A stretch of DNA of 38,665 nucleotides, taken from Polyangia bacterium. GTDB taxonomy: Bacteria > Myxococcota_A > Polyangia > Palsa-1104 > JAEUJZ01. Below the pieces are notes generated by a model. It was not told where the DNA came from and ran no database searches. It saw only the letters and a program-made list of their open reading frames with translations. The position numbers and the translations under genes are program-made. The stretch spans positions 1 through 38,665 of the forward strand of contig JBBRLA010000002.1 of assembly GCA_038231615.1 (NCBI GenBank), given 5' to 3'. Positions within the stretch are counted from its first letter, which is position 1. Every line of letters starts with the position of its first letter. Of this stretch, positions 5,149 through 31,047 are shown in pieces.

Positions 5149-5778
5149 TCACTCCGGGGCCCTTTTGCGCAGCGGGATCACATCCGCCATCGCCCTGACG
5201 ATCCCCTCCCGCTCCGCGTGTCCGCGCAGCGTCCCTTGCAGCAGCCGCCGGCCCCGGGACACCCGGCTCATCACCGTCCCCACCGGGCAATCCATGATGT
5301 CCGCTATCTCGCGATATGAGAACTCGTCGATGTCGCAGAGCATCACCGCCAGCCGGAATTCTTCCGGCAGCGCCTGGAGCGCCCGCTGCACGTCGTCGGA
5401 AAGCAGCGCCGCTTGCAGTGCCTGTTCCGGGTCCTTGGTGGTGCGCAAAAGGTCCGCCGAGAGCACGCCCTCCCCGCCCTCCTGCTCCAGCGTCTCGGCG
5501 ACCGACCGCTCCAGCACCCGGCGGCGGTATCGGCTGATGAAGGTGTTGGTGAGGATCTTGAAGAGCCAGGCCTTGCACCGCTGCTCCCCGGCGAACTGCT
5601 CGAAGGACTGATAGGCCCGCAGCACTGTGTCCTGCACCAGGTCCTCGGCGTCCCGCTCATTGCGGGTCAACCGCAGCGCGGCACCGTAAAGCGCGTCCAG
5701 ATGCACCAGGGCCGTCGCCTCGAAGCGAGCGCGGCTCTCATGGGTCTCGGGTCGCCTTTTCTCGGTGCTCTGCGCCAT
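5149..5778 (-). CDS. ECF sigma-70 factor (SigH/SigR-like)
   Basis: Region 2 [22 protein letters not shown]...[11 protein letters not shown]; region 4 [41 protein letters not shown]; adjacent ZAS anti-sigma. Confidence 0.93.
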
Positions 5779-16619: not shown

Positions 16620-16681
16620 CTGCGGGCCGGTCACTGTCCACGGAGCACACCACCTGAAGAAATCCATTATACTTGGGCGCG

Positions 16682-18874
16682 ATGCGAGAATTTCTTGCGG
16701 TGGGTAGTTGCTGTCTGTGGCTGACCATTCCGACCCTCGGTGTCTGCCTGCCCGGCGCGGTTCGCGCTGGGACAGCGGAAAAGGTCGCACCTCGGACCAC
16801 CACGGTCAAGCAGGGCGAGGACTGCCAGGCCATCGTGCGCCGGGTCTACGGCGATGCCCCCGGTGCCATGGCTCGCTTCCACTCGGCCAACCCCCAGTTG
16901 GGCGGCCTGCCCCATGTCCTGCACAAGGACGACATCATCAACATCCCCGGGCTTCGCCTTCGTCGCCCCGACCCTGGCAAGTCAGCCACGCGAGACCATG
17001 AACGCCAGCCCGGCCAGGGCGATCGTCCCCCGGAAGCCGAGCCCGCCCGACTGTCCTTCGTCGGCCCCGAAGTCCGCACCCGGGAGCGGCGCGAGGGCTG
17101 GACCGAGGCACTACCCGACCAGCCCGTCGGCAGGCGCATGCGCATCAAGACCAGCGCCGCCGGCGGCGCCGAGGTTACCCTCCAGGGGCGGGGCCACCTG
17201 CAGATGGACCCCAACGCCACCCTGGTCATCGACAACCTTCCGAAGCGCCGGACCGCCGGTGAAGTCGATCTGGTCGAGGGCTCCGTCCGCGCCGACGTCA
17301 CGCCCAATCCACCCATCGGCCAACCCAAGAGCCGTTTGGGCAGCCAGCCGGCCTCGGCCCCTCTGACGGTTCACACCCCCTCTGCGGACCTTAAGGTGCG
17401 GGGCGGCGCCCGCATCGAGGCCGAGGGGCAGAATCGATCCCTGGTCGCGGTCTACGAGGGCGCCGTCGCCGTGCGCGCCCATGGCTCCGAAGTCAAGGTC
17501 CCGGCGGGACAGGGCACCCTGGTGGTCGCCGGCAGCCGCCCCAGGGCGCCCCAGCCCCTCCTGCCCGCCCCTTCCCTGGGCAGCGAAGACGGCCCCCTGC
17601 TGGTGGTGGCCCTGGGCACCCTCGGTGACCGCCGCGACAGGAAGGGCGAGGCCACCCTGTCCTTCGAACCCGTCGGCGGCGCCGAGCAGTACCTGGTCGA
17701 GGTGGCCCGCGACGAACGCTTCAACGACCGCCGCGCCGGTGGCGAGATCGTCTCGCCGCCCTTCCGCATCGCCCTGTCCCCCGGTCAGTACCAGGCCCGG
17801 GTCAGCGCCATCGACGGAGACCGCCTGGTCGGTCCGCCTTCGGCGCCGCGGCAGGTCCGGGTGATCTCCCTGCGCACCGACGCGACCCTCAGCTCGGCGT
17901 CGCCTCCCGGGGCGCCCACCCGGCTGCTCTTCTCGCGACCGCTGCGCACCACGCTGGTGGCTTCCGGCGGCGGCTTCCTCCTGGCCGCCCGGGTCAACGA
18001 CGGCCCCGAGGTGGACTGCACCCACGGACGCACCTTCGTGCTGGGCCCGGGGGAGCACCTGGTTACCCTGAGCAGCACGGGGACCCACGGCGAGGTGCTG
18101 ATCTCGGTGTCCCCGCCGCCCCCGCCGCCGCCACCGTCCATGGTGGCCCAGAAGACCGTGGAGCCGCTGGACTTGCCGGTGCCGCTCTCGTCGCCGGGGT
18201 TCCCGGGGCGGGCCCTCTCGCCGCGCACCAGGGCCTACGCGCTTCTGGGCATCGGCGCCTCCCAGGGGGATCGCAGCGCTGACGTGTACCGGGTGGACCT
18301 CGGGGGCGAGGTGGCCTTCTTCAACAAGCAATTCTCGCTGGACCTGAACCTGCCCTTGCTCTATCACGACAACGGGCCTTATCTGTCCGGCCCTGCGGTG
18401 GGGGACGTGTCCGTGGGGTTCCGCGCGGTGGCGCTGACCTCGGCGTCGGGGCGGGCGGCCCTGGGCCCCCTCCTGCGCCTCCAGCTCCCCAGCGGCACCT
18501 TCGATCGCGGCACTCCCGATGTCCACCCGGTGGTCATCGACCCGGCCATCGCCGGGAGCCTGGTGCTCGGCCCGGTGGGGCTCTTGACCTCGCAGGGCCC
18601 CACCGCGGTGGTGGCCATCGCCACACCGCAGCTCCGCTGGTCGATGAGCTACGCCGCCGAGTACCGCCTGTCCTGGCTCTCGCTTCTGGCGCAGCTCGAC
18701 GGGGCCATCGGGCTGGCTGGCGGTGCCCCCTCTGGGGCCGCGCTGGGGGGCGGGGCGCGCATCGGGATCTCCCAGTGGCATTTGCTCTTTGGCGTCCGTG
18801 GTGGACTGGGCGACGGAGGCCAGCAGGTCTTTGGCCGGTACTACGCCAGCCTCGGCGCCGAGTGGGTCCGCTAA
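16682..18874 (+). CDS. Exported LysM + FecR-like + FN3-like protein with putative C-terminal outer-membrane beta-barrel
   Basis: Signal peptide; LysM-like TVKQGEDCQAIVRRVYG...ANP...DIINIP; FecR-like IKTSAAGGAEV...LVEGSV...VHTPSA...VAVYEGAVAV; YLVEVARDERF...GQYQARVSAID; poly-Pro linker; amphipathic strands ending YYASLGAEWVR. Confidence 0.8.
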   Translation: MREFLAVGSCCLWLTIPTLGVCLPGAVRAGTAEKVAPRTTTVKQGEDCQAIVRRVYGDAPGAMARFHSANPQLGGLPHVLHKDDIINIPGLRLRRPDPGKSATRDHERQPGQGDRPPEAEPARLSFVGPEVRTRERREGWTEALPDQPVGRRMRIKTSAAGGAEVTLQGRGHLQMDPNATLVIDNLPKRRTAGEVDLVEGSVRADVTPNPPIGQPKSRLGSQPASAPLTVHTPSADLKVRGGARIEAEGQNRSLVAVYEGAVAVRAHGSEVKVPAGQGTLVVAGSRPRAPQPLLPAPSLGSEDGPLLVVALGTLGDRRDRKGEATLSFEPVGGAEQYLVEVARDERFNDRRAGGEIVSPPFRIALSPGQYQARVSAIDGDRLVGPPSAPRQVRVISLRTDATLSSASPPGAPTRLLFSRPLRTTLVASGGGFLLAARVNDGPEVDCTHGRTFVLGPGEHLVTLSSTGTHGEVLISVSPPPPPPPPSMVAQKTVEPLDLPVPLSSPGFPGRALSPRTRAYALLGIGASQGDRSADVYRVDLGGEVAFFNKQFSLDLNLPLLYHDNGPYLSGPAVGDVSVGFRAVALTSASGRAALGPLLRLQLPSGTFDRGTPDVHPVVIDPAIAGSLVLGPVGLLTSQGPTAVVAIATPQLRWSMSYAAEYRLSWLSLLAQLDGAIGLAGGAPSGAALGGGARIGISQWHLLFGVRGGLGDGGQQVFGRYYASLGAEWVR

Positions 18875-19368: not shown

Positions 19369-21789
19369 TTAGTAGTCAATGCCATCGTCGGTCGCATGGT
19401 CCTTGTCGATGTGCATCTGGGGCAGATATTCTTCCTTATCCCAGAGGTATACGTAATGGGCGTAGATGTCGAGCGCCTTCTTCATGTACTCGCGGGTCTG
19501 CGTGTAGGCGCACAGCTCGATGAACTCGTCGAGCTGCCGATCGCCGTGCTGCCCGAGCCAGCGCAGCATGGCCTTGGGCCCGGCGTTGAAGCTGCCAGCC
19601 CCGAGCGCGATCTGTCCCTTGAACTTGCGCAAAAGGTGCCCGATGTACCACGCCCCGAACTGGATGTTCCCCTCGGGATCGTAAAGGACGTCGTCGGTGT
19701 AGGCACGGCCGATGTTGGGCGCCACCTTCTGGCTGGTCGGCGGAATCATCTGCAAGAGCCCGATGGCGTCGGCGTAGGAGACGTCGTGGGGGTTGTACGC
19801 CGACTCCTTCTGCATGATGGTGTACAGGTACCGGGGCGGGTTCTGCCCGGTGGGGGCGTATTTTTCGACGTATTCCTGATAGGCCAGCGGGTAGGCCAGC
19901 TCCCAGTAGCGGCGGGCGGCGGCGGACTTGTGGGGATCCTGGCGCAGGGCGCCCTCGCCGTACTCCTCCGCCAGGAGGTGCGGGCGCTGGAAGTTCTGCC
20001 CCCGCTGGTAGCGGTCGAAGAGCACCGGCAAGGCATGGGACGACCCATACCGGCCGATCAGGGCCCCCTCGACCCGGTGCAGTTCATAGCCGGCCTCGAC
20101 CGGCAGGTCCGCCGAGAGCAACTCCTCGACGCGCAGCACGTCGGCGTCCCGGGCGACCCGGGGGTCCGCCTCCAGCGGCGGGACGGGCGAAGGACTTGAG
20201 GAGGGCACGTCGCCAAAGGGGCCGATGTCGATTTTCGCTTCGGGCTTCGTTTCGATTTTCGTTTCGGGCTTGGCCTCGCGCAGGCGCACCCGGGCCAGCA
20301 GGGCATAGTACGACAAGGGTCGGATGCCGACGAGCTTGCGCCACACGACCTGGGCCTCGGCGCCCTTGCCCAGGTGGACCAGGGCCTGCCCCGCCCAGTA
20401 GCGCCCTTTATCGCCGAGGGTCCCCGGGCGTGCAGAAAGCGTCTGGAAATCGTCCAGCGCCCCAGGGTAGTCCCCCAGCAGGTAGCGCGAGAACCCCTGG
20501 TACCAGCGGGCATCCTCGGCGAAGGGGCCGGGGTAGCGGCGGAGGGTCCCCTGCAAAAGGGGGATGGCTTCCTTGTAGCGCCCGCGGTTGTACTCCAGCC
20601 AACCGGTCAAAAAGGAGGCCTCCGCGGCGTAGCGCGAGCCGGGGTGCGCCTTGACCAGCGCCTGGTACCCGGCGATCGCCTGCTGATCTTTGTCCGCCCG
20701 GGAGAGCGCCCGCGCCCCGTGGAACATCGCTTCGGCCTGGCGCTCGCCCTTCATTCGCGCCGCCACCGATAGCAGCTTGTCGGCGGCCTGCTCATAGCCG
20801 TGGCGCATCTTGTAGTAGGTGGTGCCGGCCCAATAGTCGACCTCGTCCTGCACCGCCTGGCCGACGTCCTTGGGCACCTGCTGAAGTTCGGCCAGTGCCT
20901 CGGGCCACTTGCGGCTGAGCGTCATGTTCCTGGCTCGCTGGATGTGTTCGCCTGCCTCGATCCGGGTCTCGCTGTCGAGGGCACGCAGGTCGACAAGGGC
21001 CTGCTCGGCGAAGGGGTGCAGGGGGTGATCGACGTAGACCTTGCGCAGGCCGGCGCGGGCCTCGACCCGGTGCCCGGCGCGGGCCTCGATCTGGGCCAGG
21101 CGGAAGCGCAGGACGGCGGGGTCAATCTCGGCACCGACGCTCTTCAAGGCCGCCTGGAAGGCCACCCGGGCCTTGTCGTCCTCCTTGGGGCCCAGTTCCC
21201 ACAGGCAGTCCGCCGCCCGGGCCCGGGCCAGGGCCAGAAAGCGCGTCCCCGGCAGGGCGGCCAGGGTCTGGAAGTGCGCTAGGGCGGCGCGCAGCAGCTT
21301 CTCGGCGTTCTTGGTTTCGGGCGGGTTCTGGTTCTGGTTCTTGGTTTCGGGCGGGTTCGCGGAGGGCTCGGTGCCCAGCAGCGCCTCGCTCTCGGCCAGA
21401 AAGTAAAGGGCGTAGTCGCGGTTGCGCAGGGCCTCGGCGGAGGTGTCCATGGCCACCGGCAGGAGCGCCTTGCGGGCATCGGCGTAGTCTCCCGCGAGGA
21501 AGGCGCGGCCCCCGTCTCGGAGGCGGGCGACGCTGGCCGAGGGCGGGGAGGCCTTCGCGATCCGAGGGGGGGCCTTCGCGACCCGAGGGGGGGCCTTCGC
21601 GACCCGAGGGGGGGCCTTCACGACCGGGGCCTTGCCGCGCTGCCGCGAGGGGGCCGCCGCCGCCGGGACGGCGAGCCCCGACGACATCCCCGAGAGGATC
21701 AACAGGGCAAGAAGGCGCAATCCTTCGCCGTGCGGGCGGCGCCGTTTTCCTTGCAGAGGCGGCAGCGGGCCAGGTAAGGCATGTGGCAC
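19369..21789 (-). CDS. TPR-containing soluble lytic murein transglycosylase (Slt family)
   Basis: IMQKESAYNP (catalytic Glu), AIGLLQMIP, LYDPEGNIQFGAWY, SFNAGP, TREYMKK; TPR repeats; signal-like N-terminus. Start uncertain. Confidence 0.9.
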   Translation of the reverse strand: MPHALPGPLPPLQGKRRRPHGEGLRLLALLILSGMSSGLAVPAAAAPSRQRGKAPVVKAPPRVAKAPPRVAKAPPRIAKASPPSASVARLRDGGRAFLAGDYADARKALLPVAMDTSAEALRNRDYALYFLAESEALLGTEPSANPPETKNQNQNPPETKNAEKLLRAALAHFQTLAALPGTRFLALARARAADCLWELGPKEDDKARVAFQAALKSVGAEIDPAVLRFRLAQIEARAGHRVEARAGLRKVYVDHPLHPFAEQALVDLRALDSETRIEAGEHIQRARNMTLSRKWPEALAELQQVPKDVGQAVQDEVDYWAGTTYYKMRHGYEQAADKLLSVAARMKGERQAEAMFHGARALSRADKDQQAIAGYQALVKAHPGSRYAAEASFLTGWLEYNRGRYKEAIPLLQGTLRRYPGPFAEDARWYQGFSRYLLGDYPGALDDFQTLSARPGTLGDKGRYWAGQALVHLGKGAEAQVVWRKLVGIRPLSYYALLARVRLREAKPETKIETKPEAKIDIGPFGDVPSSSPSPVPPLEADPRVARDADVLRVEELLSADLPVEAGYELHRVEGALIGRYGSSHALPVLFDRYQRGQNFQRPHLLAEEYGEGALRQDPHKSAAARRYWELAYPLAYQEYVEKYAPTGQNPPRYLYTIMQKESAYNPHDVSYADAIGLLQMIPPTSQKVAPNIGRAYTDDVLYDPEGNIQFGAWYIGHLLRKFKGQIALGAGSFNAGPKAMLRWLGQHGDRQLDEFIELCAYTQTREYMKKALDIYAHYVYLWDKEEYLPQMHIDKDHATDDGIDY
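21545..21632 (-). repeat. 21-bp coding tandem repeat (KAPPR[V/I]A) in the Slt N-terminus
   Basis: VKAPPRVAKAPPRVAKAPPRIAKASPP. Other short duplications in this gene encode PPETKN x2 and KPETKIETKPEAKI. Confidence 0.85.
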
Positions 21790-21866
21790 GCTTCCAGTAT
21801 ACCGGCTGCGCGGGAGAGGGCCAGAAACCGCCGCCGCTCAAGATCGCCACGACATCGGCCGATATC

Positions 21867-22637
21867 ATGGACATGGAGATCTCATCGCACCCCGACCCCG
21901 AGGAAGTGGCCGCCCTGGTCCACGCCCTGCGCAGCGCCGCCGAGAAAACCAATGACGAGGAGGACGCGGTCCTGCGACAGCTCGGCGCCGCCCTGTGCCG
22001 GGTCGCCGAGCACCTGGAGTGGCACCGGTTCGCCGGGGCGGGTGCCGCCGGGGCCCCCGAGGTCAGCCCGATCAGCGAGGCGACCTTGCATGAACAGCTT
22101 CTGGTGCTGAGCGAGCGTGCCCAGCGGCTTCGCCTGGTCCTGTCGGCGGAGGCCTGCCTGGTCCACGCCGATCCGCCACGGGCGCGGGCGGCCTCGCACT
22201 TGCTCCTGCGCCTGCCTCCGCTGGAGAACCTGGCCGGCGAACAGGCCACCCTGGTGGGCCAGACCCCGGTGTCCGCGGGGACGGCCATGTCCACCCTCTC
22301 GGCCACCCGGGAGATGCTGGCCGCGGCGGCACCCGAGCGGGCCACCCTGGAGCAACTGGGACTTCTGCCGCTGATCGAGGAGATCGACCGGTCCTTGAAG
22401 CAGCTTACCGTGGCGGCGTCCCGGCTCCTTGCGCAGCCCGCCGGAGGGGCCGTCCCAGCCGCCGGCCTGGGGGTGCTCTTCGCCGAGGCGGCGGAACGCT
22501 GCGCCGAGTTCCGTGCCTACGTGCAGGTCGCAACCGGTCACCTTTCCCGACAGGGGGACGATCCCCTCAGGCGGCAACGGCTGCTGGCGCCCCTGTCGCG
22601 CCTTGCCGGGGTCAGCCCGTTTTTCGTGGCCCGCTGA
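21867..22637 (+). CDS. Hypothetical alpha-helical protein
   Basis: Long Leu/Ala/Glu-rich ORF with GC-rich third positions. Start moved from 21783 to ATG 21867 (or 21873) to avoid a head-to-head overlap with slt. Confidence 0.65.
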   Translation: MDMEISSHPDPEEVAALVHALRSAAEKTNDEEDAVLRQLGAALCRVAEHLEWHRFAGAGAAGAPEVSPISEATLHEQLLVLSERAQRLRLVLSAEACLVHADPPRARAASHLLLRLPPLENLAGEQATLVGQTPVSAGTAMSTLSATREMLAAAAPERATLEQLGLLPLIEEIDRSLKQLTVAASRLLAQPAGGAVPAAGLGVLFAEAAERCAEFRAYVQVATGHLSRQGDDPLRRQRLLAPLSRLAGVSPFFVAR

Positions 22638-22693: not shown

Positions 22694-22721
22694 TTGACGC
22701 CCGCCCTGTGGTGCTGATAAT
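22694..22721 (+). promoter_or_regulatory. Putative sigma70-type promoter of the deo operon (TTGACG-N16-GATAAT)
   Basis: -10 ends 12 nt before the deoC ATG; no clear SD. Confidence 0.5.
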
Positions 22722-22733
22722 CCCGTCGTACCC

Positions 22734-23696
22734 ATGGCAGCATCACCCGCTCAAGGAAACCCCGGAGCATCCTTTGGCCCCGGCCCCGAAATAGATCGTC
22801 TGGTCGAGGAGATCGCCAGCCGCGTCCGCGCCCGTCTGGGCCTCTCCGCCGCCGCCAACCTGCCCCTGCGCGACCAGCCGTGTCACGAGGGCCCCTCGGA
22901 GAACTGCGGCGCCTGCGGCCTGTGCACCGTCCGCCGCCCGGACGCCGTCCGCGCCGTCGTCGGTGCCGGCGCCGAACGTGTCGGCTCCGGCCCCGGGACA
23001 CTGGGCGCCCCCGACGACATCGCCGGCCTCATCGACCACACCCTCCTCAAGGCCGATGCCACCGCCGCCGACGTCACCAAGCTCTGCGAAGAGGCCCGCC
23101 AGTACCACTTCGCCTCCGTCTGCGTCAACACCGGCCACGTCCCCCGGGCCAAGGCCCTCCTCTACGGCTCCGGCGTCATGGTCTGCGCCGTCGTCGGTTT
23201 TCCCCTGGGCGCCATGGCCACCGCCGCCAAGGCTTACGAGGCACGCGAGGCCGTCCGTGCAGGCGCCGACGAGATCGACATGGTCATCAACCAGGGCGCC
23301 CTCAAGTCCCGCGACTATGCCACCGTGCAGGAGGACATCCGCAAGGTCGTCGAGGCCGCCCGCCCCGCCCGCGTCAAGGTGATCCTCGAGACCGGGGCCC
23401 TCGACCAGGAGCAGAAGATCATCGCCATCACCCTCTCGAAGATCGCCGGCGCCCACTTTGTCAAGACCTCCACCGGCTTCGGCCCCGGCGGCGCCACCGC
23501 CGAGGACATCGCCCTCATGCGCAAACTCGTCGGCAGCGAGATGGGCGTCAAGGCCTCCGGCGGCGTCCGCACCTGCGAGGACGCCCGCAAGATGCAGGAG
23601 GCCGGCGCCAGCCGCATCGGCGCCTCGGCCTCCGTGTCCATCGTCAACGGCTGCAGGACCGGCAAGCCCCAGAAGGCCGCCGGATCGGGGTATTGA
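22734..23696 (+). CDS. deoC: Deoxyribose-phosphate aldolase with ~95-aa N-terminal extension
   Basis: [40 protein letters not shown] (Schiff-base Lys), [16 protein letters not shown]. Confidence 0.97.
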
Positions 23697-23697
23697 C

Positions 23698-24927
23698 ATG
23701 ACAAACCCGCGGTTCATCGATCGCGAAGCGCCGCAGGCGCCGCGGTTCATCGATCGTGCCCTGCTCTTGGTCATGGATTCCTGCGGCTGCGGCGCGGCCC
23801 CCGATGCCGACCGCTACGGCGACGTCGGCGCGAACACCCTGGGCAACCTGAGCCGCCGCGTCGGCGGCCTCTCCCTGCCCCACCTGCAGGAGCTGGGTCT
23901 GGGCAACCTCACTTCCATCCAGGGCGTGCCCCCAACCCAGGGCCACGCTGGTGCCCGCGGTCGCATGCGCGAGAAGAGCGCCGGCAAGGACACCACCACC
24001 GGTCACTGGGAAATCTGCGGCTTGGAGGTATCCCGCCCCTTCCCCACCTTCCCGGATGGCTTCCCGAAAGAAATGCTCGACCGCTTCACCGCCGCCGCCG
24101 GCCACGGCGTTTTAGGCAACTGCACCGCCTCGGGCACCGAGATCATCGAGCAGCTCGGCCCCCAGCATATGAGCAGCGGAGATCTGATCGTCTACACCTC
24201 GGCGGACAGTGTGTTCCAGATCGCCGCCCACGAACAGGTCGTGCCCCTGCCCGAACTGTACCGCATCTGCCAGGCTGCCCGGCGCCTCTGCGACGAGTAC
24301 AGCATCGGGCGCGTCATCGCCCGTCCCTTCGTCGGCCAGCCAGGCTCCTTCAAGCGCACCTACAACCGCCGCGACTTCTCGGTGCTGCCGCCTTCGCCCA
24401 CGGTGCTCGATCGCCTGGCCGGCGCCGGGCTGCCGGTGATCGGCGTGGGCAAGATCTCCGACATCTTCGCCGGGCAGGGGGTCACCGAGAACATCCACAC
24501 CGAGGGCAACGACGACGGGATGGAACACACCCTCAAAGCCTTCGCCAGGATGCAGTGCGGCCTGGTTTTCTGCAACCTGGTCGACTTCGACATGCTCTAC
24601 GGCCACCGCCGCGATGCGGTGGGCTACCAGCGGGCGCTGGTCGCCTTCGACGCCGCCCTGCCGCGCCTCCGAGCGATGATGGGGCCGCGGGACCTGGTGC
24701 TCCTGACCGCGGACCACGGCAACGACCCGACCTTCCCCGGCACCGACCACACCCGGGAGGAGGTGCCGATCCTGGCCTTCTCCAGCGGCCCGGCGCCATC
24801 GCCGGACCTGGGGGTGCGGCAGGGGTTTTACGACATCGCCCAGACGCTGTGCGACGCCTTCGGCCTGCCCCGATGGGCCCGGGGCCAGAGCTTCCTCTCG
24901 CAGGTGCTGACACAAGGAGCCGCATGA
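23698..24927 (+). CDS. deoB: Phosphopentomutase
   Basis: LVMDSCGCG, GKDTTTGHWE, YTSADSVFQIAAHE, GRVIARPF, NRRDFS, NLVDFDMLYGHRRD, TADHGNDPT, TDHTREEVP. Start moved to ATG 23698. Confidence 0.97.
   Translation: MTNPRFIDREAPQAPRFIDRALLLVMDSCGCGAAPDADRYGDVGANTLGNLSRRVGGLSLPHLQELGLGNLTSIQGVPPTQGHAGARGRMREKSAGKDTTTGHWEICGLEVSRPFPTFPDGFPKEMLDRFTAAAGHGVLGNCTASGTEIIEQLGPQHMSSGDLIVYTSADSVFQIAAHEQVVPLPELYRICQAARRLCDEYSIGRVIARPFVGQPGSFKRTYNRRDFSVLPPSPTVLDRLAGAGLPVIGVGKISDIFAGQGVTENIHTEGNDDGMEHTLKAFARMQCGLVFCNLVDFDMLYGHRRDAVGYQRALVAFDAALPRLRAMMGPRDLVLLTADHGNDPTFPGTDHTREEVPILAFSSGPAPSPDLGVRQGFYDIAQTLCDAFGLPRWARGQSFLSQVLTQGAA
23707..23756 (+). repeat. 33-bp-period hairpin repeat, copy B, in frame in the deoB N-terminus
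   Basis: CCGCGGTTCATCGATCG at 23707 and 23740; encodes PRFIDREAPQAPRFIDR. Confidence 0.85.
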
Positions 24928-24958
24928 GCCTCGGCAAGAAGCGCCTGGTAGAATCTGT

Positions 24959-26296
24959 ATGAGCGCCGCACTGAACATGGTCGATGTCATCCGCAAGAAG
25001 CGCGACGGCGGCGTCTTGTCCAACGACGAGATCGAGCGCTTCGTGCAGTCCTATACCCATGGCGCGGTGCCGGACTACCAGGCGGCGGCGCTCTTGATGG
25101 CGATCTTCTGGCGCGGCCTCACCGGGCCGGAGCTTTTGGCGCTGACCGACGCGATGCTGCGCTCGGGCGAGGTCATCGACCTGTCTGGGATACCGGGGAA
25201 GAAGGTGGACAAGCACTCGACGGGGGGCGTGGGCGACAAGATCTCCCTGCACCTGGCGCCCAGCGTCGCCGCGTGCGGGGTGCTGGTGCCGATGATCTCC
25301 GGTCGCGGCCTGGGCCACAGCGGCGGGACGCTGGACAAGCTGGAATCGATCCCGGGGTTCTGCACGGGCCTGGACCCCGACGAATTTCGCACCGTGCTTT
25401 CGCGGGCCGGGCTCTCGCTGATCGGGCAGACCGAGCACCTGGTGCCGGCGGACAAAAAGCTCTACGCCCTGCGCGACGTGACGGGCACGGTCGAGTCGAT
25501 CCCGCTGATCGCGGCGTCGATCATGTCGAAGAAGCTGGCCGAGGGGATCGACGCGCTGGTGCTGGACGTGAAGGTGGGCAGCGGGGCGTTTATGAAGACG
25601 CTCCCGGACGCGCGGCGGCTGGCGGCGACGCTCATCGACATCGGGCAGCGGGCGGGCAAGCGGGTGACGGCGTTCCTGACCGACATGGACCAGCCCCTGG
25701 GGCGTTGGGTGGGCAACGCCGCCGAGGTCAACGAATCGCTGGAAGTGCTGCGCGGGCACGGCGAGCCGGACCTGCTAGAACTGAACCTGCTTCTGGGGGC
25801 CGAGATGCTTTGTCTCTCAGGGGCGGCGACCGACGAGGCAGACGGGCGGGCGCGCATCGCCGCGGCGCTCTCCTCGGGAGAGGCGTTGCGCCGCTTCCAG
25901 CTCTGCGCTTTGATGCAGGGGGCGCAGATCGATCTCTCCGACCCCGATGAGGAGTGGACGACGATCAACCTGCACCGAGAGGCGCAGGCGGTCACCCATT
26001 CAGGCAGCGCCGGTCACGTGGTGTCCATCGACGCCGAGGCGGTGGGCCGGGCCGGGGTACACCTGCGCGCGGGGCGCAAACAGAAAGAGGACGCCATCGA
26101 CCCGGCGGCCTACATCTACCTGGACCGGAAGCGGGGCGAGCGGGTGGAGGCGGGGGCGCCACTCTGCCACTTCGCCGCGGCAGCGGACCTCCCTGCCGAG
26201 GAGCGGGAAGCGGCGGCGCGGCTTCTGCGCGGGGCCTACGAGATTGGCGCGGCGCCCCCGGATCCGCGCCCCCTGGTACTGGATGTGATGCGATGA
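24959..26296 (+). CDS. pdp: Pyrimidine-nucleoside (thymidine) phosphorylase
   Basis: IRKKRDG, PDYQAAALLMAI, DKHSTGGVGDK, SGRGLGHSGGTLDKLESIPG, PADKKLYALRDVT, SIMSKKLAEG, LDVKVGSGAFMK. Confidence 0.96.
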   Translation: MSAALNMVDVIRKKRDGGVLSNDEIERFVQSYTHGAVPDYQAAALLMAIFWRGLTGPELLALTDAMLRSGEVIDLSGIPGKKVDKHSTGGVGDKISLHLAPSVAACGVLVPMISGRGLGHSGGTLDKLESIPGFCTGLDPDEFRTVLSRAGLSLIGQTEHLVPADKKLYALRDVTGTVESIPLIAASIMSKKLAEGIDALVLDVKVGSGAFMKTLPDARRLAATLIDIGQRAGKRVTAFLTDMDQPLGRWVGNAAEVNESLEVLRGHGEPDLLELNLLLGAEMLCLSGAATDEADGRARIAAALSSGEALRRFQLCALMQGAQIDLSDPDEEWTTINLHREAQAVTHSGSAGHVVSIDAEAVGRAGVHLRAGRKQKEDAIDPAAYIYLDRKRGERVEAGAPLCHFAAAADLPAEEREAAARLLRGAYEIGAAPPDPRPLVLDVMR

Positions 26297-27168
26297 TCAC
26301 GATTTCTGAGCAGATCGCCGCGATGGCCGGCGTGGTACGTGGACGGCTGCCGCACGGTGCGGCGCCACGGGTCGGCCTGGTGCTGGGCTCGGGGCTGGGG
26401 GACTACGCGGATACCCTAGCTGGCGCGGTCAAGGTCCCCTACGGCGAGCTGCCGGGCTTCCCGGTCTCCCGGGTGGTGGGCCACGCCGGGAACCTGGTGT
26501 ATGGGCGAGGGCCGGCGAGTTCAGCGCATGGGGCGGGGCAGGTCGAGGTGCTGGCGATGCAGGGGCGGGTACACTCCTACGAGGGCCACAGTCTGGAGAC
26601 AGTGGTGCTGCCGATCCGGGCGCTCATCGCCTGCGGCTGCGACACCCTGGTGCTGACCAACGCCGCGGGAGGCATCGGCGCGGGGCTTTCCCCGGGGCAA
26701 CTGGTCCTCCTTTGCGATCACCTGAACCTCATGGGCGGCTCGCCGCTACGGGGCGAGAACGACGGGCGGCTCGGTCCGCGCTTCCCCGACATGAGCGCGG
26801 TCTACGACCCGCTGCTGCGGACGCTGGCCCGGGAGGCGGGCCGGGCGATGGGCATGCAGCTTCACGAAGGTGTGTACGCTGGCTGCGCCGGCCCGCAGTA
26901 CGAGACCCCGGCGGAAGTGCGGATGCTGCGCACCCTGGGCGCCGACCTGGTGGGGATGTCGACGGTGCCGGAGGCGATCGCCGCGCGTCACATGGGCGCG
27001 CGGGTGCTGGGCATCTCGTGCGTCACCAATCTGGCCGCGGGGCTTGGCGGCGCCACCCTGACCCACGACGAGGTCACCGATACGGCGGCGCGGGTGCGCG
27101 GCGACTTCATCCGCCTGCTGGATGGAATCCTCGCCGGCCTGGCGCGCGGGACCCCGTCCCATGCGTGA
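26293..27168 (+). CDS. punA: Purine-nucleoside phosphorylase (trimeric type)
   Basis: VLGSGLG, GHAG, MQGRVHSYEG, LTNAAGG, GPRFPDMS, GPQYETPAE, VGMSTVPE, SCVTN. Start moved to ATG 26293 (ATGA overlap with the pdp stop). Confidence 0.95.
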   Translation: MITISEQIAAMAGVVRGRLPHGAAPRVGLVLGSGLGDYADTLAGAVKVPYGELPGFPVSRVVGHAGNLVYGRGPASSAHGAGQVEVLAMQGRVHSYEGHSLETVVLPIRALIACGCDTLVLTNAAGGIGAGLSPGQLVLLCDHLNLMGGSPLRGENDGRLGPRFPDMSAVYDPLLRTLAREAGRAMGMQLHEGVYAGCAGPQYETPAEVRMLRTLGADLVGMSTVPEAIAARHMGARVLGISCVTNLAAGLGGATLTHDEVTDTAARVRGDFIRLLDGILAGLARGTPSHA

Positions 27169-27634
27169 CCCGAAGCCGGAAACCGCCCCCCTGTCCGTCA
27201 TCCCCCCCGAGCAGTGGAACGAGCTGGCGGCGGCGGCGGTGGCGGCGCGGGCGCGAGCGTATGCGCCGTACTCCGGGTTCTTCGTCGGCGCGGCGGTGCG
27301 TACCCGGGATGGGCGGATCTTCAGCGGGGCGAACGTGGAGAACGCCTCGTATGGGCTGACCCTTTGCGCCGAGCGCAGCGCAATCGTCCAGGCGGTGCTG
27401 GCCGGGGGGCGGGAGATCGTGGCGGTGGCGGTGTCCAGCGGGATCTCCCCACCGGCCACCCCGTGTGGGATGTGCCGGCAAACGATGGCGGAGTTCGCCG
27501 AGGACTGTGAGGTGCTGCTCCTGGGCGGCCCCAAAGGTGACGAGGAGCGTCGGGTGGTGACGCTCTCGCAGCTTTTGCCGCAGGCGTTCCGCCCGGCTTC
27601 GCTGTCCCGGGGCAAAGGACCGGTCGGTGGCTGA
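27161..27634 (+). CDS. cdd: Cytidine deaminase (homotetrameric type)
   Basis: AYAPYSGFFVGAA, GANVENASYGLTLCAERSA, PCGMCRQ, LLPQAF. Start moved to ATG 27161. Confidence 0.95.
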   Translation: MRDPKPETAPLSVIPPEQWNELAAAAVAARARAYAPYSGFFVGAAVRTRDGRIFSGANVENASYGLTLCAERSAIVQAVLAGGREIVAVAVSSGISPPATPCGMCRQTMAEFAEDCEVLLLGGPKGDEERRVVTLSQLLPQAFRPASLSRGKGPVGG

Positions 27635-28973
27635 CGCCCTGCTTTTGCGCGGGGGGACGCTGGTCACCATGGACCCGGCCCGCGAGATCGTGGCCGGGGA
27701 CCTGCTGATCGAGAAGGGCCGCATCACCGCGCTGGGCGCCATCCCCGAGGTCCCCGTCGGCACCGAAGTGCTGGATGCCACCGGGTGCCTGGTGATGCCG
27801 GGACTGGTGCAGGCCCATGTGCACCTGTGCCAAACCCTCTGCCGGGGGCAGGCAGAGGACCTGCCGCTGCTCTCCTGGCTGCGCGAGCGGGTCTGGCCCT
27901 ATGAGGCGGCGCTCTCGGAGGAAGCGACGGCGGTGTCGGCGCAGCTCGGGTGCGCGGAGCTTCTGCTCTCGGGGACCACTGCGATCCTCGACATGGGCAC
28001 GGTGCACCACGAGGAGGCGCTGATCGAGGCCGTGGCCCGGATCGGCATCCGCGCCACGATGGGCAAGGCGATGATGGACCTGCACGGGGAGGCGCCGGCA
28101 GGACTTCACGAGACCACCCGGGACTCGCTGGCCGAGTCTGACGAGCTGTGCCGACGCTGGCACGGCAAGCGGGAGGGGCGCATCCGCTATGCATACGCAC
28201 CGCGCTTCGTGCTCTCGTGCAGCGATGAACTCATGCGCGGGGTGGCGGAGCGGGTGGCGGCGGGGGGGGCGGATGGGCCGCGGGTACACACCCACGCGGC
28301 GGAGCAGCAGGCGGAGCTGGCGCTGGTGCGGCAGCGGCTGGGGCGGGACAACGTCGCGGCGCTGGCCCACCTGGGGATCGCCGGGGATCGCACGGTGCTG
28401 GCCCACTGCGTCCACGTGGACCAGGCGGAGCGCCACACGCTCTCGTCGTGGGGCACCCACGTGGTACACTGCCCGTCGTCGAACCTGAAGCTGGGTTCAG
28501 GGCTGGCCCCGGTGGTCGAACTCCTTGCGCTGGGGATCAACGTGGCCCTGGGGGCCGACGGAGCGCCGTGCAACAACCGGCTGGACGGGTTCGAGGAGCT
28601 GCGGCTGTGTTCCTTGCTGCAACGAGGTCGCCTGGGGCCGACGGCAATCACCGCCCGGCAGGCCCTTTCGTGCGCCACTCTTGGCGGAGCGCGGGCGCTG
28701 GGGCTTTCGCGGGAGATCGGATCGCTTGAGGTGGGCAAGCGGGCCGACGTGGTGGTGGTGGATGTACAGAAGGTGCACCTGACCCCGGATTACGATCCGC
28801 TCTCGGCGCTGTGCCACGGGGTCCGCGGCAGCGATGTGCGGGACGTGCTGGTGGATGGCCAGCTGCTGGTGCGAGGGGGACGGCTGACGGAGCACACCGG
28901 CCTGGACCTTTCGACCCTGCGTGAGCAGGCGAATGAACAGGCGCGACTTACCTTGCGACGGGCTGGGCGTTAG
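27627..28973 (+). CDS. Amidohydrolase-family nucleoside deaminase (5'-deoxyadenosine/MTA/SAH deaminase-like)
   Basis: PGLVQAHVHLCQT, YAPRF, HTHAAE, LAHCVH, HCPSSNLKL, GADGAPCNN, IGSLEVGKRAD. Substrate inferred from family resemblance and operon context. Confidence 0.88.
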   Translation: MADALLLRGGTLVTMDPAREIVAGDLLIEKGRITALGAIPEVPVGTEVLDATGCLVMPGLVQAHVHLCQTLCRGQAEDLPLLSWLRERVWPYEAALSEEATAVSAQLGCAELLLSGTTAILDMGTVHHEEALIEAVARIGIRATMGKAMMDLHGEAPAGLHETTRDSLAESDELCRRWHGKREGRIRYAYAPRFVLSCSDELMRGVAERVAAGGADGPRVHTHAAEQQAELALVRQRLGRDNVAALAHLGIAGDRTVLAHCVHVDQAERHTLSSWGTHVVHCPSSNLKLGSGLAPVVELLALGINVALGADGAPCNNRLDGFEELRLCSLLQRGRLGPTAITARQALSCATLGGARALGLSREIGSLEVGKRADVVVVDVQKVHLTPDYDPLSALCHGVRGSDVRDVLVDGQLLVRGGRLTEHTGLDLSTLREQANEQARLTLRRAGR

Positions 28974-29472
28974 CGCCGGCGGCCTCTTCAGCGGCCCCGC
29001 GGCGCACTTTGCGCTCGCCGCGGATCTCGTTGCGCTCCCCGCGACGCTCCTGGCGTTCGCCCCGGACCTCCTTGACCTCGCCCCGGCGCACCTCTGCGGC
29101 GCCGTGCGCTTCCTTGGCGGCGCCCCGCGCCTCCAGGCGCTCTCCCTTGGCCTCGACCCGTGCCGCAGCGACCGGGTGGCCGGTGGCATCCAGGACGGCG
29201 GCGCGCTGTTCCAGCCGCTCCCCGCGGCGCTCCAGGCGCTCGCCGCGGACCTCCTTGCGCTCCCCGCGCTGCTCCAGACGCTCGCCCCGGACTTCCTTGC
29301 GCTCCCCGCGACGCTCCTGGACAGCGCCCCGGACCTCCTGCCGCTGGCCGCGGTTCACCTGGGCGGCGCCCGCGGCCTCTACGGCGACGTTGTCGGCATG
29401 GGCCAGGACAGGCGCCAGGCAGAAAGTGCTCACCAGGGCCAGGCGGGAAACGATGGTTTTCACGGTCAGCAT
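28948..29472 (-). CDS. Secreted Arg/Glu/Gly-rich repeat protein
   Basis: AAGGAGG RBS, signal peptide ending AHA-D, 7-aa periodic GERxxxR repeats. Confidence 0.8.
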   Translation of the reverse strand: MLTVKTIVSRLALVSTFCLAPVLAHADNVAVEAAGAAQVNRGQRQEVRGAVQERRGERKEVRGERLEQRGERKEVRGERLERRGERLEQRAAVLDATGHPVAAARVEAKGERLEARGAAKEAHGAAEVRRGEVKEVRGERQERRGERNEIRGERKVRRGAAEEAAGANAQPVAR

Positions 29473-29583
29473 TGAAGTCCTCCTTGGTTGCCAGTTCAGA
29501 CGGACCCACGGCCCGCTTATTCAAGCAACCCCTGACCGATCTCCTCGGACGACATGGGCTATGCTAGCCTACCCAGGTCAACG

Positions 29584-31047
29584 ATGAACGCCAAGATCCT
29601 TCATGTGAATCTGCAGGGTGGGCAGAACACGGAGTTTCCCCTTTTGCCGCAGGGCGTGATTCTCGGCAGGGCCCCGGCGTCCGACGTCCGCCTCGACGAT
29701 CCCTCCATGTCCAGCGTCCATGCCCAGGTCTTCTTTCAGGGCGGGGCCTGGTGGGTCGAGGACCGAAAGTCCCTCAACGGCACCTATGTGAACGGCATCC
29801 GTGTCAGCGGTCGAGTCCAGCTTTCCCACATGGCCCACCTGCGCTGCGGGTCGGTCCAGCTATGGTTCCTGCTGATCGTCGGCGTGGACAGCCCCACCCT
29901 CTTGCCAGGATCAGGGCCAGGGCCAGGGCCAGGGATGATCAGTCCCCGAGAGCTTTCTTCCCTGAAACAGGATCGCGACCGCCTGCGCGAGCAGGTCGAG
30001 GACATCAGGCGCCACGCGGAGGCCGATCTCTTGCCCGTGGTCACCGAGCGGGACTCCCTGCGCGACGAGCTGTGGAAGATCCGCCGGACCTGCACCGCCG
30101 CAGAGCAGGAAACCAAGGGGCTGCGTGAGGATCTTTTTCGCACCACGCAAAAGAACGGGGAACAGGAACTCAAGTTGCAGGCGCTGCTTTTGGAATCGCA
30201 GAACGATCACCGCCTGGCCGAGCAACGGCGCATCGAGGTCGAGCGGCTGAAGTCCGAGGGACAGAAGAAGGAGCAGGCAGCGGACGAGAAGCGGCTGGCC
30301 CTTGAGGGACGGGTCCGCGATCTGGAGGCAAAGGGGACGCTCCTTCTGGCCGAGAACAGCGAGCTGCGGGGGGCGGTGAAGCAGTCCCGGCAGAAGGCCG
30401 ATGAGCAGGAGGTCGCCAATCAGAACCAGAAACAAGAGAAAGAAAAAGCGACCCAGGCCCTGGACCAAAGAAACCGGGAGATGCGCGAGCTGAGGGGGCA
30501 CCTCACCGAGCTGGAGGTCAAGGTCAGCGCCGCCGAGAAGAAGGCCGAGCTTTCGACCGGAAAGCTCGACGCCATCATCGGCGAGAGAGACACCCTGAAG
30601 AAGCGCTACGATGAGCGCGTGGTCGCGCACACCGGGGTAAACGCGGAGAACCGCCTCCTGCGGGACGAACTTTTGCGATTAAAAGATGTGACCGCCCGGG
30701 AGGTAGGCCACCTCCGTCGGGAGAACCGTCGGCTCACCGAGGCGCTCGAAGAGCGGCGTGACGCGACACCCGCGAAAACTGCGGGAACGGGGCAGGCACC
30801 GGAAGAAGCCGCGACCTCGGCGACCCGGCAGATAGCCGCCCTGGTCTACCGCGGGGCCAGCAAGACCCTCGCCGCCTTGCAGGTCGATCTCCTTACCGCG
30901 CTGGACGGCTGCGCGGCACAGAAGGGCCCCCAATCTACCGATCAAGAGGCGCTGCGGGTGAGCTTGCAGAAGATGCTTGGACTGACCGAAGAGGCCACCA
31001 CCTGTATCGGCAGCCTCCAGCACGTCATTGATCGTGAAGCGCCGTAG
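29584..31047 (+). CDS. FHA-domain protein with long coiled coil
   Basis: LGR, SSVHA, DRKSLNGTYVNG; GPGPGPG linker; ~300 aa of E/K/R/L heptads. Start moved to ATG 29584. Confidence 0.88.
   Translation: MNAKILHVNLQGGQNTEFPLLPQGVILGRAPASDVRLDDPSMSSVHAQVFFQGGAWWVEDRKSLNGTYVNGIRVSGRVQLSHMAHLRCGSVQLWFLLIVGVDSPTLLPGSGPGPGPGMISPRELSSLKQDRDRLREQVEDIRRHAEADLLPVVTERDSLRDELWKIRRTCTAAEQETKGLREDLFRTTQKNGEQELKLQALLLESQNDHRLAEQRRIEVERLKSEGQKKEQAADEKRLALEGRVRDLEAKGTLLLAENSELRGAVKQSRQKADEQEVANQNQKQEKEKATQALDQRNREMRELRGHLTELEVKVSAAEKKAELSTGKLDAIIGERDTLKKRYDERVVAHTGVNAENRLLRDELLRLKDVTAREVGHLRRENRRLTEALEERRDATPAKTAGTGQAPEEAATSATRQIAALVYRGASKTLAALQVDLLTALDGCAAQKGPQSTDQEALRVSLQKMLGLTEEATTCIGSLQHVIDREAP

Follow-up and report, generated by a model that had tools for sequence, protein, structure and literature searches.

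Classical deo operons, among them deoCABD of Escherichia coli and dra-nupC-pdp of Bacillus, encode cytosolic pathways that take deoxynucleosides to glyceraldehyde-3-phosphate (G3P) plus acetaldehyde. The aldolase of this route, deoxyribose-phosphate aldolase (DERA, the DeoC protein), also occurs in the shell loci of SPU-type bacterial microcompartments (BMCs), usually together with an RpiB-like protein; the substrate proposed there is deoxyribose-5-phosphate from DNA breakdown, and the acetaldehyde would be passed to an encapsulated aldehyde dehydrogenase (AldDh). Dwyer, Sutter & Kerfeld 2024 (Commun Biol 7:1562) report that every SPU-BMC DERA carries at its N-terminus an extension, formed by an amphipathic helix of 25-30 residues and two strands modelled with low confidence, that other DERAs lack and that gene callers frequently overlook. 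In the same study, whose dataset places a Myxococcales species under SPU3, DERA was soluble after deletion of the extension and full-length SPU6 DERA was insoluble when expressed alone, and encapsulation peptides are described as mediating cargo-cargo and cargo-shell contacts. For the HO-type BMC, whose function is called 'enigmatic' by Sutter et al. 2021 (Nat Commun 12:3809), a single sentence in the main text of that paper, given with no gene context, states that some genomes with an HO locus have a distal pfam01791 enzyme, in some cases with an N-terminal extension resembling an encapsulation peptide (EP) and possibly encapsulated, which would fit nucleic-acid catabolism in myxobacteria. 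As that sentence reads, the idea of an encapsulated DERA is already in print as a hypothesis for HO-BMC genomes. Here we describe a six-gene operon on a 38,665-nucleotide stretch of DNA (the window), which is the entire contig C2 (JBBRLA010000002.1) of the genome bin of a Polyangia bacterium (GCA_038231615.1; 962 contigs, 8.41 Mb, 96.6% complete, 5.57% contamination). We propose, with a probability of roughly 0.7, that this is a conserved operon for deoxynucleoside catabolism and that deoC, its first gene, specifies a DERA of the microcompartment type, which is loaded into an HO-type BMC encoded elsewhere in the genome.

The operon occupies positions 22694-28973 of the + strand, where a promoter-like site is followed by six tightly packed genes, deoC-deoB-pdp-punA-cdd-amidohydrolase, all of which pass the cut-offs of their NCBIfam models. 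deoC (22734-23696, 320 aa) matches the DERA family TIGR00126 over residues 96-304 with 262 bits (cut-off 117); deoB (23698-24927) encodes a phosphopentomutase that interconverts deoxyribose-1-phosphate and deoxyribose-5-phosphate (NF003766, 526 bits, cut-off 256); pdp (24959-26296) a thymidine/pyrimidine-nucleoside phosphorylase (NF004490, 526 bits, cut-off 269; TIGR02644, 517 bits); punA (26293-27168) a purine-nucleoside phosphorylase of the inosine/guanosine type (NF006054, 344 bits, cut-off 218); cdd (27161-27634, alternative start 27122) a homotetramer-type cytidine deaminase (NF004064, 148 bits, cut-off 74; TIGR01354, 146 bits); and the last gene (27627-28973) an amidohydrolase of the 5'-deoxyadenosine/methylthioadenosine/adenosine deaminase family (NF005557, 539 bits, cut-off 522). 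The spacings from deoC to the amidohydrolase gene are +1, +31, -4, -8 (-47 with the cdd start at 27122) and -8 nt: the deoB ATG stands 1 nt past the deoC stop, the punA start overlaps the pdp stop as ATGA, cdd overlaps punA by 8 nt, and the amidohydrolase gene begins with a GTG in an 8-nt overlap with the cdd stop. No terminator-like site was found on the + strand within the operon, whose end is marked by a convergent gene. The sigma-70-like promoter candidate TTGACG-16-GATAAT (22694-22721, +), a consensus match only, at 10 of 12 positions, is the single such match between 21500 and 30000, where shuffled sequences give a mean of 0.3; the deoC ATG follows the end of its -10 element at a distance of 13 nt, which would leave the mRNA nearly leaderless. 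An Rfam scan of the whole window returned no family at gathering score and no riboswitch. Coordinates, family calls and spacings agree with the first-pass annotation, made from the letters of the window, which had described six packed or overlapping genes behind one putative promoter.

The gene set is that of a deo operon, with DERA, phosphopentomutase and nucleoside phosphorylases encoded in one direction and closely spaced, and it draws on the same enzyme families as the classical operons. From the functions of these families, Cdd converts (deoxy)cytidine to (deoxy)uridine, the DadD-like amidohydrolase converts (deoxy)adenosine to (deoxy)inosine, Pdp (acting on deoxythymidine and deoxyuridine) and PunA (deoxyguanosine and deoxyinosine) phosphorolyse deoxynucleosides to deoxyribose-1-phosphate, DeoB yields deoxyribose-5-phosphate, and DERA splits the latter into G3P and acetaldehyde; together these functions cover all four deoxynucleosides. 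The amidohydrolase probably serves as a (deoxy)adenosine deaminase feeding PunA, a substrate assignment that follows operon logic. Compared with the classical deo operons, the locus adds cdd and the amidohydrolase-type adenosine deaminase and has neither a transporter nor a DeoR/CytR-type regulator; in Streptococcus and other named loci, deoC is found beside cdd and pdp. The earlier statement that the window holds no shell, AldDh, transporter or regulator gene also stands, since searches of the contig with PF00936 and PF03319 gave no match and the window open reading frames (ORFs) scanned with Pfam included no AldDh, transporter or DeoR/CytR-type regulator. What we would change is the label 'satellite locus' that had been attached to it: satellite loci in the definition of Sutter 2021 contain at least one shell protein gene, and a distal cargo or feeder operon describes the arrangement better.

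What sets this operon apart is the N-terminus of its DERA. An extension of about 95 aa precedes an intact catalytic domain, as the TIGR00126 match begins at residue 96, solved DERAs align to residues 94-307 only (E 8.5e-70), and the D-K-K active-site positions, judged by eye, are in place. DeoC is the only one of the six enzymes with a long extension; the other five begin within about 4-18 residues of their family models, which upholds the previous observation that the targeting-like helix is confined to DeoC. The deoC frame opens at 22698, and the ATG at 22734 is the single in-frame ATG, GTG or TTG in its first 109 codons, so DeoC cannot be made without the extension. Comparison with the same-family genome G135 gave 24 synonymous and 14 non-synonymous differences over 57 aligned codons, and on this codon pattern we judge the extension to be translated and under purifying selection. 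When residues 1-98 were used as query, 12 matches at E<=0.001 (self included) were obtained among 1376 candidates, and the 11 non-self matches are all DeoC-family proteins of 310-355 aa. The DeoC proteins of classical operons, as represented by the named loci and the solved DERAs, differ in having no extension.

Two elements can be distinguished within it. The first, at residues 18-37 (22785-22844, +), is a predicted amphipathic helix and candidate encapsulation peptide, helical in an AlphaFold2 model built on a 12-row alignment (per-residue confidence, pLDDT, about 53-77) and conserved as D-x-L-V-x-x-I-x-x-x-V-x-x-x-L. The second, at residues 50-69 (22881-22940, +), is a Cys-rich knuckle made of C50, C58, C61 and C64, followed by V-R-R-P; its four cysteines are invariant in 12 of 12 close homologues and are spaced C-x7-C-x2-C-x2-C in the clade of the window DeoC. 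The alignment of close homologues shows the pattern D-x-L-V-E-E-I-x-x-R-V-x-x-x-L and the four Cys as invariant or nearly so, with a linker between the helix pattern and the Cys whose length varies by whole codons. In the model, residues 39-68 are of low confidence (pLDDT below 50 in the knuckle), a short helix follows at 69-77, and the barrel is confident from residue 96. The window DeoC therefore presents the amphipathic helix plus second element expected of a BMC-associated DERA, in likeness to the SPU DERAs of Dwyer 2024, whose extensions of about 70-95 residues are absent from non-BMC DERAs. The knuckle may be a small structural metal site, which is our guess. Cysteine is mentioned in the main text of Dwyer 2024 only in connection with RPI and mass-spectrometry settings, and the word is absent from two of its supplementary files. 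Searches with the extension profile against the PDB gave no match better than E 0.1, and an ESM Atlas search with residues 1-98 gave a best score of 0.75, within the chance range. The N-terminus of DeoB was also considered as a targeting helix and rejected: its hydrophobic moment is 0.81, but it contains prolines and a repeated short motif and shows no conservation, its first 19 or so residues not being conserved beyond the family. Residues 1-25 of DeoB (23698-23772) carry an R-F-I-D-R motif twice with a Pro-rich stretch between the copies.

In sequence, the DeoC extension is typical of the type found on microcompartment (SPU-type) DERAs. A search of 1.84 billion representatives with an extension profile (A2, whose nine source sequences are described below) retrieved 104 proteins at E<=0.001, many of them fragments; at E<=1e-10 the number was 37. 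Twelve of the 104 were fetched, chosen for length, and in 11 of these a Cys cluster is followed by an A-V-R-x-I-x-x-A-G-A-x-R-I-G-like helix directly before the DERA barrel; P0112 is the one fetched match without cysteines. Pfam scans of two matches identified a flavoprotein-DERA fusion (P0055) and an RpiB-DERA fusion (P0095), in both of which the Cys element stands between the two domains. Fusions of these kinds, the RpiB-DERA ones being known from SPU3 (Dwyer 2024; Hodarchaeales AMC preprint, 10.1101/2025.11.08.687404), share with the window protein a Cys-rich element and a helix before the DERA barrel; they differ in that another domain precedes the Cys element and the gene lies in a shell locus (as in the relatives G275 and G165), whereas here a free amphipathic helix comes first. 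The same kind of helix is borne by DERAs whose genes lie in BMC loci of Acidobacteriota, Spirochaetota, Elusimicrobiota and Vulcanimicrobiota; some of these DERAs have no Cys element. In the relatives of the window genome that element is found in 20 of 20 loci, with 3-4 Cys at differing spacings. A Cys-rich second element was also seen in P0055, P0063, P0069, P0084, P0095 and L031-L050. Among 80 named loci found by tblastn with the full DeoC protein, 17 have a match that starts before residue 80 and so reaches the extension, and in nine of the 17 shell genes lie within 10 kb; two of the 17, from Arthrobacter, show no helix. The remaining 63, where the match starts at residue 84 or later, include one locus, L067, that has shell genes and also a long open frame upstream, and the extension is absent in 62 of them.

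The BMC that the first-pass annotation had placed outside the window, and whose absence it had named as a refutation, is present in the same genome, as a main locus with AldDh on contig C5 and further satellites. Genome-wide, PF00936 gave five matches and PF03319 seven. The C5 locus consists of a BMC-T-like tandem gene (weak PF00936 match), BMC-H, BMC-P, AldDh and BMC-T; the AldDh, of the acetaldehyde type, is a protein of 499 aa with its domain starting at residue 72 and is encoded between the shell genes, and a class II aldolase gene lies 3 kb from them. Contig C338 carries two further BMC-P genes, giving a BMC-P triplet with two members in a satellite. On contig C362 (L017 1067-4694, - strand), EutB and EutC are encoded together with two weak BMC-domain matches in one adjoining frame; by analogy this is the 'EUT module' satellite that Sutter 2021 describes for HO loci, and it would provide the same shell with a second supply of acetaldehyde. 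A further contig, C219 (6744-8133; L016), holds four tandem EutN/CcmL-family genes with no BMC-H nearby and with flanking proteins that have no Pfam match, and seven PF03319 matches (C219, C5, C338) are an unusually high number.

On this gene content, the BMC of the genome is of the HO type and not an SPU locus. It resembles the HO-type BMC as given in Sutter 2021 in its Myxococcota host, in the BMC-T, BMC-H, BMC-P, AldDh and BMC-T genes of the main locus, in the separate locus with two BMC-P, in the EutBC satellite, and in having, at another place in the genome, a gene for a DeoC-type aldolase whose N-terminal extension is EP-like. The differences are that the class II aldolase here is near the main locus, not with the two BMC-P, and that the DeoC-type aldolase heads a full six-gene operon. 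SPU BMCs have the genes for DERA and mostly an RpiB-like protein within the shell locus, whereas here the contig with DERA has no shell gene and a search of the genome for the RpiB family (PF02502) found none. Two candidates from these searches were discarded. A 281-aa ORF upstream of BMC-H proved to be a wrong frame over the BMC-T-like gene with the weak PF00936 match, and the single PduL/PTAC match was a half-domain ORF on contig C211 with no sign of an encapsulation peptide. The latter (C211:1599-1931; L131 1477-1809), of 110 aa, matches the first half of PduL/PTAC and adjoins an MgtE-like gene, and may be a remnant or else a half-domain that stands alone.

The extension and shell genes also occur together across the phylum. 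In a sample of 401 genomes, the window's own included, the DeoC query matched 305 genomes, PF00936 177, the extension as a single-sequence query 74, and the extension profile A2 101. Profile A2 was built from nine sequences from relatives' loci selected by a pattern requiring CxxCxxC, three of 12 loci having failed the pattern and been left out, so that the Cys invariance in its alignment is by construction. PF00936 was present in 97 of the 101 genomes with a profile match, compared with 80 of the 300 without, and in 69 of the 74 with a single-sequence match, the exceptions being G126, with a strong match, and four at E>1e-4. Three of the 80 were examined (G120, G014, G007), and they have a helix-only extension that the Cys-biased profile missed. 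In a single genus, the extension is accompanied by shell genes in G250 and G290, and G115 has neither, its DeoC lying in a 229-aa open frame.

The gene neighbourhood was compared over 8 kb on either side of DeoC in 20 relatives picked by hand for high scores and sufficient flank, with G176, G275 and G165 included deliberately. The same six-gene order was found in three (G135, G395, G325), partial deo clusters in G250, G150, G292 and G004, and an extended deoC alone amid unrelated genes in 11. The genes that flank the operon in the window have no counterpart in these loci; since the flanks do not recur and the six-gene order does, the six genes form a conserved unit and not a chance arrangement. 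In G275 and G165, deoC stands beside BMC-H, BMC-P, AldDh and BMC-T, and their DERAs are RpiB-DERA fusions in an SPU3-like arrangement, with DERA and the RpiB-like protein in the shell locus as in SPU BMCs.

A quick maximum-likelihood tree of 98 catalytic domains, for which the careful search is unfinished and the rule for grouping a sequence as 'extended' is crude, unites the DeoCs of deo operons in a clade of 8 rows (SH-aLRT 97), one of them from a named Myxococcales metagenome-assembled genome, inside a 21-row Myxococcota group, and the two RpiB-DERA fusion barrels fall elsewhere. The idea that deoC had been relocated out of a shell locus was dropped for this reason, the genes of G275 and G165 being fusions that stand apart in the tree. 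The shell and AldDh proteins of these two loci (L049, G275:C1, and L050, G165:C8), which come from genomes of the same class, are 54-75% identical to those of this genome, and their fusion barrels group with Arthrobacter DeoC, a grouping that hints at different histories of extension and barrel.

We infer the encapsulation of DERA from this comparative evidence, and the following pathway would result. The first five enzyme steps would take place in the cytosol and deoxyribose-5-phosphate would enter the shell of the HO-type BMC, into which the tagged DERA, as the sole operon enzyme with a helix and a Cys knuckle, would be loaded. Acetaldehyde would then be freed inside, beside the shell-locus AldDh with its own N-terminal helix, and oxidised to acetyl-CoA, and G3P would exit the shell; the same shell and AldDh would probably take acetaldehyde from the EutBC satellite module too. 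The genome search found a single deoC, and deoxyribose would on that account be catabolised entirely by way of the organelle. The first-pass annotation had suggested that cytosolic steps feed an organelle encoded elsewhere, and the HO-type BMC, the type of extension and the co-occurrence in the phylum lend this support. A full-text literature search found no paper on the coupling of a deo operon to a BMC-type DERA, and the supplementary text of Sutter 2021 contains none of the words 'phosphopentomutase', 'thymidine phosphorylase' and 'deoxyribose', although locus diagrams in its PDF may show more; the coupling and the Cys knuckle appear to be undescribed so far.

Several observations weigh against the loading of this DERA into the HO-type shell. 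The placement of DERA inside a BMC is inferred here as it is in the papers of Dwyer and Sutter, as far as these address it. The amphipathicity of the DeoC helix is only moderate, since 6% of shuffles reach its hydrophobic moment of 0.54. The DeoC and AldDh helices are alike only by eye: a hidden Markov model (HMM) of the DeoC helix (9 sequences), run over 55,624 ORFs of at least 80 aa, scored DeoC alone (35.5 bits), with the next match at 12 bits and the AldDh N-terminus outside the top 25. No upstream word of at least 9 nt is common to deoC and the shell, Eut and BMC-P loci, in a comparison in which the 'upstream' stretches may be partly coding. The Cys element differs from lineage to lineage and, to judge by its distribution, is accessory, and profile A2 favours the Cys subtype owing to the Cys-motif selection of its sequences. 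Four genomes are positive for the extension and have no PF00936 match, namely G126 (E 1e-25; 92% complete, 390 contigs), G042, G012 and G024. The co-occurrence counts overstate the case, because related genomes are not independent, and so describe a pattern rather than test it. Finally, the operon and the shell genes are on separate contigs of a 962-contig bin with 5.6% contamination.

Some of these points would suit an ordinary cytosolic deo operon, in which the extension serves metal or redox regulation, oligomerisation or contact with a soluble partner and co-occurrence reflects shared ancestry. The Cys-rich element does look like a small metal site, the nearest PDB matches being ferredoxin-type and zinc-ribbon proteins (non-significant, E 0.1-7), and both the solitary extended deoC in 11 of the 20 relatives' loci and the failure of the helix HMM to recover the AldDh helix would be expected. 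Set against this are the same helix on BMC-locus DERAs of several phyla, the Cys element in RpiB-DERA fusions of BMC loci, the lack of any extension on non-BMC and all solved DERAs, the 97 of 101 genomes with PF00936, and the joint absence of extension and shell in G115 within its genus, and we consider a purely cytosolic operon unlikely. We find it decidedly improbable that the extension drives a shell-independent assembly of DERA and AldDh, an enzyme core or condensate in which acetaldehyde is channelled without enclosure of DERA. Encapsulation peptides are described as mediating cargo-cargo contacts and full-length SPU6 DERA is insoluble alone (Dwyer 2024), which would suit such an assembly, but the extension is nearly confined to genomes with shell genes in our sample, and the AldDh is encoded between shell genes. 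It is highly improbable that the contigs with the operon and with the BMC genes stem from different organisms of the metagenome, as the fragmentation and contamination of the bin and their separate contigs could suggest. Both the six-gene operon and shell genes are present in G135, a genome of the same family with 1% contamination, and G106, G116 and G176 each carry BMC-H on the contig or chromosome of the extended deoC, which speaks against a binning artefact.

The surroundings of the operon in the window offer a few further observations. A 284-aa ORF (21783-22637, +) lies directly upstream of the promoter-like site; it has a coding-like codon-position GC (GC3 0.86), matches neither Pfam nor NCBIfam and has no counterpart around deoC in the 20 relatives. 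On the other side, a 174-aa ORF (28948-29472, - strand) is convergent with the deaminase gene and shares 26 nt with the 3' end of that gene; its product has a signal-peptide-like start, many short Arg/Glu-rich repeats and no Pfam match. The window also encodes an extracytoplasmic function (ECF) sigma factor (5149-5778), a FecR-like protein (16673-18874) and an FHA protein (29554-31047), none of which adjoins the operon.

Beyond the loading of this one enzyme, it is a tentative possibility that the HO-type shell is a general acetaldehyde organelle whose cargo is set by substrate-specific, shell-less operons, with the Cys knuckle as a Zn or Fe-S site that makes loading or activity depend on metal or redox state. 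The deoxynucleoside operon would then be the source of both the signature aldolase and the cytosolic enzymes that feed it, and the ethanolamine module would be the other such operon. Under the reading that we prefer, in which the operon's DERA is cargo of the HO-type BMC, the locus supports deoxyribose-5-phosphate from DNA breakdown as a natural substrate, because the only DERA found in the genome bears a microcompartment tag and because one Myxococcota clade ties that DERA transcriptionally to the enzymes that make its substrate. It would also follow that searches confined to the neighbours of shell genes miss part of a microcompartment's pathway.

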